The notes beneath the pieces were generated by a model that was not told the DNA's origin, did no database searches, and was given only the letters and a program-made list of their open reading frames with translations. Positions 26,697 to 51,111 of a stretch of DNA of 54,488 nt are shown in pieces. How positions within the stretch are numbered: position 1 is the stretch's first letter; every line of letters starts with the position of its first letter. Origin of the DNA: Candidatus Bathyarchaeota archaeon (GTDB lineage Archaea > Thermoproteota > Bathyarchaeia > Bathyarchaeales > Bathyarchaeaceae); assembly GCA_050115935.1 (NCBI GenBank), contig JASFPO010000001.1:1-54488 (forward strand), given 5' to 3'. The position numbers were made by a program, and so were the translations under genes.

Positions 26697-27662
26697 TCAT
26701 AATATGGGGAAAATTCGCGGGAGACCCCCTTTCGCAGATTCTCTTGGGGAGAGTGTAATTAGGTATTCTGCCAACGCGTCGGAAATTGGCTGACCAGTTG
26801 CTTTCTGAAAATAGCTATAGCCTGGAGAAGGGTTGACCTCCAAGCAGTAGACCTTATCTGGATTGACAATTAAATCGATTCCTACAAAAGACAGTTGGCA
26901 TATGTGGGCGAGTTTTAGGCACTTCTTCCGCATCGCAATAGTTAATTCATATGGTCTAAACTTCAGCGAGGTTCCTTCCTGAACGGCATATCGGTAGTCT
27001 GTGGCAGAAGTCAGAATCTGGGTAGCGAACAACCTCTTCCCAATAACGTGGACACGAACATTAAAGCCTTCAATCTTATGTTGAAACTGCGTAGGAAGGT
27101 AACGCAGCGACTTGATCCTTTTTACAGACTTCTCATCTAGGCAGCCAACAATCGATCGAATAGAACTTATGGATTTATAAATTAGCGGGCTGTTTGAAAA
27201 TGCAAACTCCGACAAGGACTGTAAGTTGTTTGTAATCATTGTTTCAGGGATGGCAAAACCGGATTGCCGTATAAGCAAAGCTTGGTATGGTTTGGAGTTA
27301 TTAGACATCATTGGTCGCCGGCGGTTGACAACGCGAACTGGGAGAATATCGAAAAGATCCATAAGGGAACGCATAATCGAGCGGGTTTTGCTGACAACCT
27401 GTAAGGAGTTACCTGAACTAAGGAGGACTTCAGGTTTCACGAAGCGGTGGTACACGCTACAGATTTCTTTTATTTCAACAGCCTTCCCATCTACTCTGAG
27501 GTGACCGGCAATGCCACGGTCAGTCACTTGCCAGCGGAGCTGAACTTGATCGGCTAGCTTTTCTTGGTCTAAAGCTATGAAGTCGGCCCCCTTTCTAAGA
27601 AGCGACTGGACAAGCATGGCAACTGGCGCCTCATCTGCAATGCCACAAACGAGAGTCACCAT
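26697..27662 (-). CDS. ATP-grasp ligase, canonical catalytic motifs (RiPP-maturase/RimK-like)
   Basis: C-terminal LSFVGIDLIVNPDKVYCLEVNPSPGYSYF (Mg/ATP D...E-x-N). Central KPYQALLIRQSGFAIPETMI. An N-terminal pre-ATP-grasp domain. The overall layout resembles MdnC/MvdD as I recall them. Its ATG at 27662 overlaps the upstream stop. Confidence 0.8.
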   Translation of the reverse strand: MVTLVCGIADEAPVAMLVQSLLRKGADFIALDQEKLADQVQLRWQVTDRGIAGHLRVDGKAVEIKEICSVYHRFVKPEVLLSSGNSLQVVSKTRSIMRSLMDLFDILPVRVVNRRRPMMSNNSKPYQALLIRQSGFAIPETMITNNLQSLSEFAFSNSPLIYKSISSIRSIVGCLDEKSVKRIKSLRYLPTQFQHKIEGFNVRVHVIGKRLFATQILTSATDYRYAVQEGTSLKFRPYELTIAMRKKCLKLAHICQLSFVGIDLIVNPDKVYCLEVNPSPGYSYFQKATGQPISDALAEYLITLSPRESAKGGLPRIFPIL

Positions 27663-27663
27663 A

Positions 27664-28557
27664 CTACTTCCCTTTCCCAACGGCGAAATTGATGATATGC
27701 TCGAATATCGCATCCCCGAATGCTGTAACAGCTAAGGTCGGTGGTCGTCCGCAGCCTGAAAAGATCCATGTGTCTTTTGCCGTAACATGGAAATAATACT
27801 CTGCCACGTTAAGGTTTAGCCACTTGTGAAGAGTTCGCAGACGAGTTCTAACCAGACGCGGGATTTGACGGTAAGTAATAGGTGTGAGTGTATCTTCCGA
27901 ATCCAGTGCACATGCGAAAAACCGGCTACCCACTAAGGCCACGGACATCATCCTGCCGGGTATTTCTTCCGTAACTCGGAAATGATTTTCTTTTTGCTCC
28001 AAAAGAGATAGATCAACTCTGCTTGAGCTTTTTTCGCTGATCCAAGCATCTCCCAAGTCGGCGTAACGTGCTGTAACTCCACTTGAAAGCAGTTCTGCTG
28101 TAACCTTCCCAGATTCCAAAGAAACAATCGCTGGTATCTGAAAACCTAGACGGTGGGCAAAATACAATATTTCAGGCGTAGACAACAGAGTGCCAGCCAT
28201 TGTATCTAAAGCAGGCGGATTCACAACTTGGCAGGGCAAGCTTGCAAGGATTGCTAGCCACAGTGCTTGGGTCTCCCAAGCAGCATATTCCGCGTCTTTT
28301 GATGAGAACTGGTCCCATAGCTTTGGCTCGAAGGCATTTATTCCGCAGTAAACTCCATCTATACAATGGCTCTCGATGGAGGTGCCCTGAAAGCTTAACT
28401 GGAACTTAACACCCTTGTCTGATAGGTGGAAGACGAGCACCAAATCGCGAGCTATCTCAGCGCTAGTTAGTACTAATGTCTCTAGCCCTTTGCGTTCCGC
28501 GACATTTTTTAACCTGCGACTGAATTCAGTTAGCTGCTGATCCAGAATCAGAAACAA
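27664..28557 (-). CDS. ATP-grasp-like paralog lacking the canonical E-x-N
   Basis: Same length class and layout (VVNPPALDTMAGTLLSTPEILYFAHRLGFQIPAIV matches the central-domain entry). The position of EVNPxPG reads IFSGCGRPP instead. Confidence 0.55.
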   Translation of the reverse strand: MFLILDQQLTEFSRRLKNVAERKGLETLVLTSAEIARDLVLVFHLSDKGVKFQLSFQGTSIESHCIDGVYCGINAFEPKLWDQFSSKDAEYAAWETQALWLAILASLPCQVVNPPALDTMAGTLLSTPEILYFAHRLGFQIPAIVSLESGKVTAELLSSGVTARYADLGDAWISEKSSSRVDLSLLEQKENHFRVTEEIPGRMMSVALVGSRFFACALDSEDTLTPITYRQIPRLVRTRLRTLHKWLNLNVAEYYFHVTAKDTWIFSGCGRPPTLAVTAFGDAIFEHIINFAVGKGK

Positions 28558-28561
28558 TGTT

Positions 28562-30079
28562 CTATTTTGCTCTTTTTCGTTTTCTCCGCGCTTTCGGTTT
28601 TACTTCAGGACGTTTTTCAGATGAGATAAACGGCGTAAGCTTTTTGACAATCTTTTCCAGTCGATCCATTCGCTCTCCTAGCTCATCATACGCTATTCGG
28701 AATTGCTCAAAGGGCATTCGGAACCCTGGACCTTCGTAAGTTTGTTTCGGCTCTAAAGCCTGCTTGGGCTCCCTCACCTGCTTGGGCTCCCTCACCTGCT
28801 TGGGCTCCCTCACCTGCTTGGGCTCAAGCCACTCTTTGGGCTCTTTCCATTCTTTCCATTCTTTCCACTCCTTAATAGGTTTGATCGTGGTTAGACAGCG
28901 ACATAGAAAGACCCTTCTAGCAAGATCTGTTGAGGACTCGGATATGACAGGGTTATCTATAGCGATGGCATAGTCATAGGCTTCCCATGCAGAAATTAAG
29001 GTATTCAAGTCGTCGTCAGCCGAGATTGCTAAAGCTGTCCCATCACCTCGGACGCCAGCCATTGCAGAAATCCACATTTCAGCCCAAGGATCAAAAGGCC
29101 AGCCTCCTGCAGAACTCTGGTCCCCAGGAACAGCCGCTTGGAAAACGGTGTTTGCAGCCGGGCTATTGTCCATTATAGGTTGGGAAAATGACCCTGAGGC
29201 ACACTGTTCCATGACAACCAGCAATGTCTTGAATGCTGGTAGTGTAGCGAGGTCTGCAGCAAAGTCACTTGCATAGTAATTGCCACCATATGCACTCAGA
29301 TAACCGCCGTTCTCATCAAACCAGCCATGATTGTTGGTATGAACTAGAAGGCAATCCCAAGGACGGATACGTGTTTTCAGGTCGTTGATCACATTCTGGA
29401 AACCGGCGCGGTCGCCTCTGCCATTGACAACCAACCTCCATGCTGATCCGTCTGGTCCAAACCCCGCGGACGCAGGTGTTTCCCACGACATCTGATTGTA
29501 GTTTATGGTGCCATCATAATTCAAGACATATATATCTGCAGAATCGTAGCCGTAAACGTCCACCAGCGTTCGATACAAGAATTCCATGTCGTTCACATGA
29601 CGGCCATTTGATGCCCCAGAGAACAAAATGGCATAGCGCTTCCCTCGAATCCAGAACTTTAGCGGAAAGGGAGCTATTTTGGCGTAGGCACTTAGCTTGG
29701 CAACATCAAATCTTATCCTTGACTTTTTTTTTCGTTTGTAACGTTCGACGGTTTCGCTACTCCGGAACAACTCAAGTGTTTTTGGCTTTTTATGTATGAA
29801 ATACGGGAACTTTGCTGGAACTTTACGGATAAACTCGCCAGTTTTTGCTTCGTAGAGCAAGTAGTGGCAACGATGACCGAAGTTCTTTCCCGGTTCATCA
29901 TCCACGAACACCACATAGGTTGGCCTGTCGAACTTGAGTTGCTCCGTGACTATGTCAATACTCTCGCCTCTTTGCATCATCTTGTGGTCCAGATAAAGCA
30001 GAAAGTCTTGGTTGCCATCATTATTGAGAAGAACGCGCTCCTCTGATTTCTTCTTGATTTTTTCGAAGACCTCTTTCAA
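28562..30079 (-). CDS. Peptidase C13 (legumain/GPI8-like, clan CD) domain protein with an N-terminal unknown domain and a repeat-rich basic C-terminal tail
   Basis: KRYAILFSGASNGRHVNDMEFLY (compare legumain WAVLVAGSNGWYNYRHQAD). LLVHTNNHG carries the His and, 42 residues later, LLVVMEQCASGSF carries the Cys. The tail reads KEWKEWKEWKEPKEWLEPKQVREPKQVREPKQVREPKQALEPKQ...MPFEQFRIAYDELGE...KARRKRKRAK. Confidence 0.75.
   Translation of the reverse strand: MKEVFEKIKKKSEERVLLNNDGNQDFLLYLDHKMMQRGESIDIVTEQLKFDRPTYVVFVDDEPGKNFGHRCHYLLYEAKTGEFIRKVPAKFPYFIHKKPKTLELFRSSETVERYKRKKKSRIRFDVAKLSAYAKIAPFPLKFWIRGKRYAILFSGASNGRHVNDMEFLYRTLVDVYGYDSADIYVLNYDGTINYNQMSWETPASAGFGPDGSAWRLVVNGRGDRAGFQNVINDLKTRIRPWDCLLVHTNNHGWFDENGGYLSAYGGNYYASDFAADLATLPAFKTLLVVMEQCASGSFSQPIMDNSPAANTVFQAAVPGDQSSAGGWPFDPWAEMWISAMAGVRGDGTALAISADDDLNTLISAWEAYDYAIAIDNPVISESSTDLARRVFLCRCLTTIKPIKEWKEWKEWKEPKEWLEPKQVREPKQVREPKQVREPKQALEPKQTYEGPGFRMPFEQFRIAYDELGERMDRLEKIVKKLTPFISSEKRPEVKPKARRKRKRAK
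28760..28868. repeat. In-frame tandem DNA repeats (18-bp unit x3 perfect plus 2 degenerate; 9-bp unit x3) inside the C13 gene
   Basis: CTGCTTGGGCTCCCTCAC at 28760, 28778 and 28796. Degenerate copies at 28814 and 28832. TCTTTCCAT/C at 28842, 28851 and 28860. Confidence 0.9.
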
Positions 30080-30220
30080 AACCTAACCCCCAGTTTTATT
30101 CTAGATTGATTAACTGCCGACTTATTAAGATTTCCATTTTTGGCTCTGTCAAGTTGTCGGTTGATTGGGAACGCCCAAAATCGGTTGATAAAATGTCTAT
30201 TGCGGAGTATCATATTGACG

Positions 30221-30544
30221 TTAATGAAACATCTCACAGTTCATTTCAACAATCTTTTCATTGTGGTATTCGCCCTCCAGCATATCAATCAAGAATCTTG
30301 TGAATGGCAGTAACGCTGTTTCTGTTCCCTTAAGTAGTCCATTGCCAGACTTAGGGAATAGATATGCAGCTAGCTGGGTTAGCTTTGAGATAGGTTCAGC
30401 ATCGGATTGGCGTAATTCATTCGCAATTCCAAGGTTTCTGCAAGACAATACTAGAGTATATGTGTTTGAGCATCTTGAAGAACCGACGGATTCTGCAGCC
30501 CCTATTATCCCTAAAACATGCTCTATTCTAATTCCACTGAGCAT
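30221..30544 (-). CDS. Small ORF upstream of the C13/ATP-grasp operon; candidate modified-peptide precursor
   Basis: 107-aa ORF (ATG), co-directional and 141 nt upstream of the C13 gene. C-terminus reads ...TALLPFTRFLIDMLEGEYHNEKIVEMNCEMFH. No Shine-Dalgarno sequence. Coding status unproven; an antisense ORF of similar length exists. Confidence 0.35.
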   Translation of the reverse strand: MLSGIRIEHVLGIIGAAESVGSSRCSNTYTLVLSCRNLGIANELRQSDAEPISKLTQLAAYLFPKSGNGLLKGTETALLPFTRFLIDMLEGEYHNEKIVEMNCEMFH

Positions 30545-30548
30545 CTAG

Positions 30549-30563
30549 ATTCTCTTAGAGAAT
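30549..30563. promoter_or_regulatory. Palindrome ATTCTCT-T-AGAGAAT immediately upstream of the small ORF
   Basis: 7-bp arms, read directly; 5 nt upstream of the ATG at 30544. A second inverted repeat, CTCCCT-N9-AGGGAG, lies at 30576-30596 and encloses an ATAATA tract. Confidence 0.3.
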
Positions 30564-30855
30564 TGATACACGATGCTCCCTGTCATAATAAGGGAGAACC
30601 AGTGGAATGTCCATACCCTAACTGTCAAGTCTAGTCCAGGCTCTCAACCAGGATAGAAAACTATGTGTGCTACGTTTAAGCAAGGAATGATGATAGAAGT
30701 GCGCTTCCCCAGCCTGGGCAATAATTGGGAATCACACCATGAATTTATAGTGCCTTTGTTTCGGGTTGAGTTCTATATGTGTCCACAGCTGTTGCGCGCT
30801 CTAAGGAGTTGAGAAAGGGTAGCCAATAATGATTATCCATTGGAGGCTGAGTAAA

Positions 30856-47906: not shown

Positions 47907-47984
47907 TGGTGGGCCGGGCCGGATTTGAACCGGCGACCTTCTGCACGTCAAGCAGATGTCCTAACCGTGCTAGACTACCGGCCC
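47907..47984 (-). tRNA. tRNA-Val (GAC), CCA encoded
   Basis: Manual cloverleaf: GGGCCGG/TA/GTCT-AGCACGGTTA-GGAC/A/TCTGC-TTGACGT-GCAGA/AGGTC/GCCGG-TTCAAAT-CCGGC/CCGGCCC/A-CCA. Confidence 0.93.
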
Positions 47985-50922: not shown

Positions 50923-50997
50923 GGGCGGGTAGATCAGCTTGGTATGATCGCGGCGTTGGCATCGCCGAGGTCGCGGGTTCAAATCCCGCTCCGTCCA
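50923..50997 (+). tRNA. tRNA-Ala (GGC)
   Basis: Manual cloverleaf: GGGCGGG/TA/GATC-AGCTTGGTAT-GATC/G/CGGCG-TTGGCAT-CGCCG/AGGTC/GCGGG-TTCAAAT-CCCGC/TCCGTCC/A. It has the G3:U70 alanine identity pair. No encoded CCA. Confidence 0.93.
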
Positions 50998-51111
50998 CTA
51001 TTGTTCCACAATATTTTGTACTTGATTAACCAATCCTTCGTATGTTAACACCCGACCAGAAGGTGGCTATAAGCGCTTTATCTCTCTTTCAGACTATTCT
51101 CGCGCACGCGT

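Follow-up and report, generated by a model that had tools for sequence, protein, structure and literature searches.

We analyzed a locus at positions 26697-30544, on the minus strand, of a 54,488-bp contig (the window) from a Candidatus Bathyarchaeota metagenome-assembled genome (MAG). The locus encodes a legumain-like (C13) protease whose C-terminal tail carries lysine/glutamate (K/E) repeats and, immediately downstream, two proteins of ATP-grasp descent, one of which may use the tail as its substrate. An earlier note on this DNA, made from the letters alone, had listed four minus-strand open reading frames (ORFs) here; all four are present at the coordinates that it gave, as are the motif strings that it quoted. 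The features, in the direction of transcription, are the following.

30221-30544, minus strand: 107-aa ORF, taken from the ORF list.
28562-30079, minus strand: 505-aa multidomain protein with an N-terminal domain, a legumain-like (C13) protease domain and a K/E-repeat tail with a follower motif; TTG start; supported by 347 homologues, an AlphaFold2 (AF2) model and legumain fold matches.
29732-30079, minus strand: N-terminal domain of the 505-aa protein, aa 1-116; predicted local distance difference test (pLDDT) score of 91 when modelled alone.
29651-29728, minus strand: inter-domain linker, aa 118-143, disordered (pLDDT below 50), with the motif LxPAKLSAYxKLxPFPLxF in the alignment.
28895-29638, minus strand: legumain-like clan CD catalytic domain, aa 148-395, from invariant residues, Foldseek and the legumain alignment.
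28742-28885, minus strand: K/E repeat region, aa 399-446, (K-E-W/P)n followed by (E-P-K-Q-V-R)n; candidate core of an ATP-grasp substrate.
28601-28687, minus strand: putative follower (recognition) motif DELGERMDRLEKIVKKLTPFISSEKRPEV, aa 465-493, a predicted helix and then PFI....RP; conserved consensus.
28565-28600, minus strand: basic C-terminal end KPKARRKRKRAK, of varying length among close homologues, most of which are basic here.
27664-28557, minus strand: 297-aa degenerate ATP-grasp paralogue, putative pseudo-ligase partner; TTG start; identified by hhalign against the active ligase family.
26697-27662, minus strand: 321-aa graspetide-type ATP-grasp ligase, predicted to be active from its intact ATP-grasp residues; ATG start shared with homologues.

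The gaps of 141 nt between the 107-aa ORF and the protease gene and of 4 nt between the protease and 297-aa genes are as previously described. The stop/start overlap reported for the last two genes was a misreading: the TAG (27666-27664) and the ATG (27662-27660) are separated by a single base. The open frame of the 321-aa ligase extends to 27713, and the ATG at 27662 is the start used in homologues.

The 107-aa ORF had been proposed as the first gene of an operon and as a peptide precursor, and neither role withstood the comparison with other loci. When 1.84 billion representative proteins were searched exhaustively with HMMER, only the ORF itself and one marginal match of 32 residues came back, and tblastn and tblastx found nothing resembling it upstream of any related cassette. 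Its G+C content at third codon positions (GC3) is 0.36, versus 0.44-0.50 for all of its neighbours. Because the ORF is an orphan, is missing upstream of the relatives and has a low GC3, we rejected it as a precursor, and by these comparisons the cassette comprises three genes, of which this ORF is not a credible fourth. At locus L087 its place is taken by a 112-aa gene, which is a paralogue of the N-terminal domain of the protease and is unrelated to the 107-aa ORF. We looked for a trace of such a paralogue in the corresponding region of the window and found none, and thus also rejected the idea that the ORF is a decayed copy of that domain. The deoxyhypusine synthase and protease genes are separated by approximately 780 nt (30080-30855), which hold nothing other than this low-GC orphan; this DNA could contain the promoter of an acquired cassette or be the scar of its integration.

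The protease, its tail and the two ATP-grasp proteins

The AF2 model of the 505-aa protein, built on an alignment of 24 sequences (mean pLDDT 74), displays a confident N-terminal domain (1-116), a disordered segment (118-143), a confident catalytic domain (148-395), a second disordered segment (398-470) and a helix (457-485). Foldseek matched the catalytic domain to legumain, plant asparaginyl endopeptidases/ligases (AEP) and GPI8 (E 2e-9, TM-score of approximately 0.6 on the target), and the family profile matched plant legumain with an E-value of 1e-8. In this alignment the R-H, H-G and E-x-C-x-S-G motifs coincide, with SNGRHVND and MEQCASGS of the 505-aa protein facing NYRHQAD and LEACESGS of the plant enzyme. 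The catalytic dyad is composed of His251 (in HTNNHG; codon 29327-29329) and Cys293 (in MEQCASG; codon 29201-29203), 42 residues apart; both are invariant in the homologue alignment, as are R160, H161 and E291, which correspond to S1-pocket residues. The Pfam C13 profile, PF01650, scores 20.2 bits (E 5e-4), under its gathering cut-off of 22.8, and many homologues are flagged PF01650 in precomputed data. Thus, judged by its predicted fold, its dyad and its S1-pocket and oxyanion motifs, the protein is a legumain-like (C13) cysteine protease, an assignment that the earlier note had made from motifs and that stands.

The likeness to legumain and AEPs of clan CD covers the fold, the order and 42-residue spacing of the dyad (His, then Cys) and the N-x-R-H and E-x-C-x-S-G motifs. 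The window protein, however, is prokaryotic and cytoplasmic, with no evident signal peptide, and lacks the C-terminal LSAM pro-domain of legumain; its C-terminus is instead a disordered K/E repeat and one helix in the AF2 model. It further differs in its N-terminal domain of unmatched fold, in its K/E tail and in its slightly sub-threshold PF01650 score.

The N-terminal domain carries the invariant residues F58, D60, P63, N66, H69 and F91, and its model has no structural neighbour in the PDB or BFVD at E<0.1. The domain may accordingly have a fold not described so far, in which the D60/P63/N66/H69 loop is invariant, and it would presumably act as a pro-domain or in an inhibitor-like manner. 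A cystatin-like legumain inhibitor was considered and found unsupported, since the model is confident and falls outside that E-value limit in both databases. The linker motif that follows the domain is restricted, in our alignment, to the C13 subfamily that is associated with ligase genes.

The tail follows the catalytic domain. In close homologues it begins with an anchor, ...ESS..LS..V[FY]L.RC, and continues with K-E-x triplets (x being W, F, I, Y or P), E-P-K-x-x-x hexads, the sequence YEGP, a helix ending in R-L-E-x-x-V-x-K-L-x-P-F-I-x-x-x-x-R-P, and a basic end. The repeat region is kept in all 48 full-length close homologues that were examined, with a number of K-E units ranging from few to approximately 28. 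In the window it holds nine KxxxE and nine ExK motifs, and its DNA contains perfect tandem repeats (28759-28867; 18 nt repeated 3.7 times and 9 nt repeated 2.9 times, at 100% identity) that encode the EPKQVR and KEW units and imply a very recent expansion by slippage. In the tails of C13 proteins, the spacing with the highest enrichment (3.6-fold) is a lysine followed by glutamate or aspartate at position +4.

In the 321-aa ligase the ATP-grasp residues K163, R203, H205, D263, E275 and N277 are intact, and all six are invariant in its family. Among NCBIfam models it scores 129.8 bits with TIGR04187 (1.2e-37), 88 with MvdD, 86 with MvdC and 60.5 with rimK_fam (1.6e-16), the last being well below the family cut-off of 143.4; Pfam RimK matches it at 1e-11. 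Profile matches to PDB structures are led by the graspetide macrocyclases MdnC (4e-17; 65.6 bits) and PsnB (1.5e-14), followed by CdnC and MdnB (both approximately 1e-11), with RimK itself at approximately 4e-4 (23 bits). The N-terminal pre-ATP-grasp domain is of the MvdD type. The nearest relatives of the ligase are thus, by profile comparison, graspetide macrocyclases (MdnC, PsnB, TIGR04187) and not RimK, and since its scores stay below the graspetide cut-offs we assign it to a separate subfamily. The graspetide affinity that had been proposed is in this way borne out; profile and Foldseek searches recovered both the graspetide-type ligase and the C13 fold, with metabolic families far below their cut-offs.

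The 297-aa protein aligns over its whole length with the active ligase family (hhalign probability 98.5%, E 2.5e-15, 291 columns), and its best PDB profile matches are AMdnB and MdnB. At the ligase positions, however, it carries A for K163, S/A for R203/H205, Y for D263 and G/G for E275/N277, and its own family conserves residues 68-142 rather than the catalytic positions. It also evolves faster than its neighbours, with identities across loci of 25-59% as compared to 44-69% for the ligase. Because the ATP and Mg ligands are replaced and a different region is conserved, we read it from its sequence as a pseudoenzyme partner and not as a second ligase. Of the proposed pair of ATP-grasp ligases, common ATP-grasp descent is therefore correct, but an active pair of the MdnB/MdnC kind is not, given the missing catalytic residues of the 297-aa protein.

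Conservation of the cassette and distribution of the tail

A scan of one genome per species yielded 78 loci with relatives of the C13 protein. In 13 of 13 loci with a C13 identity of at least 44%, the C13, grasp-like and grasp genes are adjacent and co-directional, with the ATP-grasp pair immediately downstream; ligase genes are present in none of the 65 loci that carry more distant C13 homologues. The tail follows the same division without exception: tail and ligase pair are both found at all 13 close loci, and neither at any of the 65 distant ones. Indeed, the repeats and the PFI motif occur in all close C13 homologues and in no distant ones, and the latter also lack the KLxPFP motif of the linker. 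The hosts of the close loci are Bathyarchaeia, Nitrospirota, a Microcystis MAG, Chloroflexia, Bacteroidota/Bacteroidales, Sabulitectum and Myxococcota. We compared 1.5 kb of flanking DNA on each side of the cassettes and found nothing shared, including no other conserved gene that could supply a substrate; gene content outside the three genes differs at every locus. A conserved neighbourhood thus exists, tightly packed, in Archaea and at least seven bacterial phyla, but only for the three genes and without the 107-aa ORF.

The protease of the window is 77% identical to the Nitrospirota copy (L006), 73% to that of the Microcystis MAG (L007) and 71% to another Bathyarchaeia copy (L008). This higher identity to bacterial than to archaeal relatives suggests either a recent transfer between domains of life or mis-binning of bacterial contigs into MAGs. 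In the window the flanking genes are housekeeping genes (SRP54, PAC2, Hsp20, deoxyhypusine synthase, and carboxylase and biotin-carrier subunits), with no transporter gene among them, as the earlier note had remarked; since these flanks are archaeal, the cassette belongs to the chromosome of an archaeon and is no artefact of binning. Taken together, the sequence comparisons describe a self-contained, horizontally mobile unit of three genes.

Several cassettes depart from the common layout and are decaying or remodelled. At L001 (9519-10748) an ISL3 transposase gene separates the protease gene from the pseudo-ligase gene, which is truncated; in a Chloroflexia locus (L010, 10477-11381) the ligase match is broken across several frames; and in Sabulitectum (L002, 10497-11428) two additional small genes, encoding 172 and 124 aa with no Pfam match, stand between pseudo-ligase and ligase. 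A few kb downstream of two cassettes (L001, 15859-17494; L002, 12744-13904) are genes for caspase-like Peptidase_C14, XendoU-LTD and patatin proteins, gene types that are typical of conflict-system neighbourhoods and are not conserved across our loci.

The ligase itself is more widespread than its association with C13 proteases, with at least 565 relatives in one metagenome scan. Around out-group ligases, 38-49% identical to that of the window, the order tail protein, partner, ligase is retained. The tail protein is in these cases, spread over many bacteria, fused to a Peptidase_S8 subtilase (L090, L099, L103), to a trypsin-like Nal1/S7-like domain (L101, L148) or to a putative papain-like cysteine peptidase (L089), or else it is a stand-alone protein of 138-400 aa made up of nearly nothing but K/E/D repeats and the follower. 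In all of them the follower motif terminates the protein, and over 84 non-identical sequences, fused to C13 or not, its consensus is R..rLE..v..L.(P/H)FI..e.RPdl. The middle gene of the out-group loci (240-300 aa) is homologous to the 297-aa protein (hhalign 99.9%, E 2e-37) and lacks the lid region as well.

A strict regular expression for a K/E-rich stretch followed by the follower was satisfied at 34 of the 44 loci with at least 1.5 kb of upstream sequence, and variants of the motif are visible by eye at most of the remaining ones. As a control, all six frames of every locus were searched: 55 stop-free stretches matched on the ligase strand and one on the opposite strand. The same expression had no match in 892 kb of distant-C13 loci. 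Since the same layout and follower recur with unrelated proteases or with none, sequence comparison defines the conserved unit as tail module, pseudo-ligase and ligase, and the protease as exchangeable cargo. The proposal that the C13 enzyme is the specific processing partner of the ligases does not survive this result, as ligase pair and tail also accompany S8, trypsin-like and papain-like proteases or no protease.

Stand-alone copies of the N-terminal domain adjoin C13 genes at most distant loci and at L015, L016, L064, L087 and L088. Among the distant homologues (L018-L083; for example L022, 26-3395, L025 and L030), which are 33-45% identical and carry neither tail nor ligases, a paralogue of approximately 100 aa is nearly always adjacent, on either side. 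Nine of the distant loci continue with genes for a Pvc16_N (DUF4255) protein and for a conserved 286-aa protein without known function. A contractile-injection-system context was considered and rejected, as Pvc16_N occurs only beside distant C13 homologues and L022 has no sheath or tube genes nearby.

A comparable gene of approximately 97 aa, with no Pfam match, precedes the tail-bearing S8 subtilases (L090, 2867-3160; L099, 2958-3257; L103, 2995-3288). Its product and the S8 propeptide both end in ...AYIKPPDELP, and it resembles a stand-alone copy of the propeptide, in parallel to the paralogues of the C13 N-terminal domain. Because four unrelated protease classes carry the tag and many loci encode stand-alone (pro)domain copies, we favour a regulated protease on a ligase-modified tag over a dedicated leader peptidase.

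The tail as a candidate ligase substrate

On balance, and by a modest preference, we propose that ligase, pseudo-ligase and protease tail form a graspetide-like system that is partner-dependent and of the follower type, with Lys-Glu isopeptide links in the tail. The C-terminal tail of the protease would be a built-in substrate: the pseudo-ligase/ligase pair would dock on the follower motif R..LE..V..L.PFI....RP at its end, and the ligase would use ATP to join Lys and Glu side chains within the (KEx)n/(EPKxxx)n repeats into isopeptide (macrolactam) links, most plausibly with a K(i)-E(i+4) spacing. The protease domain would then be cargo on the tag, or a processing activity on it, rather than a dedicated partner of the ligase. 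We infer that the tail is the substrate because it tracks the ligases, because no other substrate gene is conserved, and because the tail is portable and its follower is conserved and position-specific; the affinity of the ligase to graspetide macrocyclases, the fitting K(i)-E/D(i+4) spacing and experimental precedents point in the same direction. The type of bond and the biological purpose are likewise proposed by analogy.

Three precedents bear on this proposal. CorB, a ligase of the TIGR04187 type, depends on partner proteins and acts on a 22-kDa precursor, in which it closes Lys-Asp lactams within five KxxxD repeats (PMC13097080). In the myxomiditide system, the ligase MyxF forms lactams in (KxxE)n repeats, whereas its ATP-grasp paralogue MyxD2 shows no activity by itself (PMC12848669). 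Finally, the graspetide synthetase ThfB is still directed by its recognition sequence when this is moved to the C-terminus, and it can also cyclise and cross-link proteins (PMC13003496).

The corallotide system CorA/CorB is the closest of these by curated family, TIGR04187 being the best such match of the window ligase. Its precursor is protein-sized, each of its repeated K-x-x-x-acid motifs is closed into a Lys-Asp isopeptide ring (PMC13097080), and it is partner-dependent, features to which the repeats and partner gene of the window can be likened by sequence. The window differs in that its candidate core lies at the C-terminus of a 505-aa enzyme, with the recognition element after the core and not before it, in that its partner is a dead ATP-grasp paralogue, and in that oxygenase and beta-lactamase genes are missing. 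Side-by-side ATP-grasp paralogues are common to MdnB/MdnC and to the myxomiditide genes MyxF/D1/D2/C, and the demonstrated (KxxE)n lactams and the inactivity of MyxD2 alone (PMC12848669) parallel the repeats and the pseudo-ligase of the window. Microviridin systems have two catalytic ligases, of which one makes esters and the other makes amides, whereas the 297-aa paralogue has lost its Mg/ATP ligands altogether; nor does the window contain a TxKxPSD core, a short separate precursor gene, or a transporter or acetyltransferase gene. As compared to graspetide systems in general, there is no conserved small ORF or N-terminal leader, and the candidate substrate is fused to an enzyme with its recognition motif C-terminal to the repeats. 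Such an enzyme-fused substrate, C-terminal recognition motif and obligate dead-ligase partner would, if the sequences are read correctly, be unusual within known graspetide chemistry.

A number of observations weigh against a modified tail. The case for it is one of co-occurrence alone. Most sequences are metagenomic or from MAGs, and bacterial host assignments could include binning errors. The ligase falls far under the NCBIfam trusted cut-offs of every graspetide family (129.8 versus 350 bits). The preferred K-to-E spacings of C13 tails and out-group proteins differ, so that a single common cross-link geometry is not demonstrated, and the repeats are of low complexity and disordered according to AF2. 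In addition, four protease classes of differing specificity disfavour a simple leader-peptidase logic and leave the purpose of the fusion unexplained.

The tail could also be a docking platform or scaffold only, with a follower that binds the ligase complex, repeats that act as a flexible spacer, and a ligase whose target lies elsewhere, be it a small molecule, another protein, or whatever the protease cleaves or yields. Co-occurrence demands a physical or functional link and is silent on what is ligated; predicted disorder, an unstable number of repeats with perfect tandem copies in the DNA, as expected of spacers, and repeat patterns that vary among clades all agree with this explanation. 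It is harder to reconcile with the stand-alone tail proteins, which being almost solely K/E repeats and follower leave no other function in the three-gene unit. Moreover, omega-amide graspetides are joined through just these residues, Lys as donor and Glu/Asp as acceptor, and related ligases have been proven to act on cores with repeated K...D/E. We thus hold a purely docking tail to be unlikely.

Less probable still is a ligase that adds amino acids in the manner of RimK or tubulin glutamylases, placing poly-Glu or other residues onto Glu side chains or the C-terminus. The window ligase does share the ATP-grasp fold and the Pfam RimK domain with RimK/alpha-L-glutamate ligases, with matches of 1e-11 (Pfam RimK) and 1.6e-16 (rimK_fam), and the tail is rich in glutamate. 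Graspetide models nevertheless outscore those of RimK (TIGR04187 129.8 versus rimK_fam 60.5 bits; MdnC 65.6 versus RimK 23 bits), the ligase is below the rimK_fam cut-off, and its N-terminal domain is of the MvdD type. The tails have variable, basic C-termini and not an acidic one as in S6, and their repeat lysines are as conserved as the glutamates.

We give very little credence to the scheme of the earlier note, in which a 107-aa precursor is modified by two active ligases as in microviridin and processed or transpeptidated by the C13 enzyme: the ORF is co-directional and 141 nt upstream, and L087 has a gene of approximately 110 aa at the equivalent position, but the ORF is a low-GC3 orphan that is missing upstream of every other cassette, the L087 gene is an unrelated N-domain paralogue, and the 297-aa protein has no ATP/Mg ligands. 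A metabolic ligase (of the glutathione, cyanophycin or cofactor-glutamate type) lying by coincidence beside an unrelated protease gene is equally remote, for although source annotations of homologues read 'glutathione synthase/RimK-type ligase' and the flanks in the window are housekeeping genes, the linkage is kept across domains of life while the flanks differ at every locus, intergenic spacings are merely 4 nt and 1 nt, and metabolic families score far under their cut-offs.

Should the tail indeed be the substrate, graspetide chemistry would reach from short secreted peptides to the tails of full-size intracellular enzymes. The cassette would also provide a natural C-terminal (follower) recognition sequence, an arrangement shown so far only by engineering, and would define an obligate pseudo-ligase partner. 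The four protease classes, the stand-alone K/E proteins and the large number of ligase genes (at least 565) suggest a widespread, uncharacterised system of protein cross-linking, whose carriers are for the most part Bathyarchaeia and uncultured microbes of soil and sediment. More speculatively, and with a good deal less confidence than in modification of the tail as such, repeats, follower and ligase/pseudo-ligase might constitute a portable 'tag and ligase' system for whole proteins, in which the tag would be stapled by ATP-driven formation of isopeptide links, or cross-linked between molecules, so as to switch, stabilise, polymerise or anchor the fused partner; repeated fusion to four unrelated protease classes with pro-domain paralogues would then hint at a regulated-protease or conflict function and not at a secreted natural product. 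The follower-plus-repeat tag could serve in enzymatic protein stapling.

A literature search found no paper linking ATP-grasp ligases with C13/legumain proteases, and the 2022 phylogenomics paper on graspetides makes no mention of the combination. In the accessible part of the supplements of the 2026 RODEO survey PF01650 was not found, and group 36 (Thermoprotea) of that survey has, in the same part, neighbours different from those of the window cassette. There may be some overlap between the wider K/E-repeat family and groups with long repeat precursors that the survey leaves without a name, such as groups 34 and 35, as far as that part of the survey goes.

Other features of the window

PADLOC models of known defence systems matched none of the four proteins, and a known defence system was accordingly set aside as a candidate. 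Rfam and tRNA scans detected no RNA element within 26-31 kb, in or near the cassette. Elsewhere in the window, and bearing no relation to the cassette, are genes for tRNA-Val(GAC) at 47907-47984 and tRNA-Ala(GGC) at 50923-50998.

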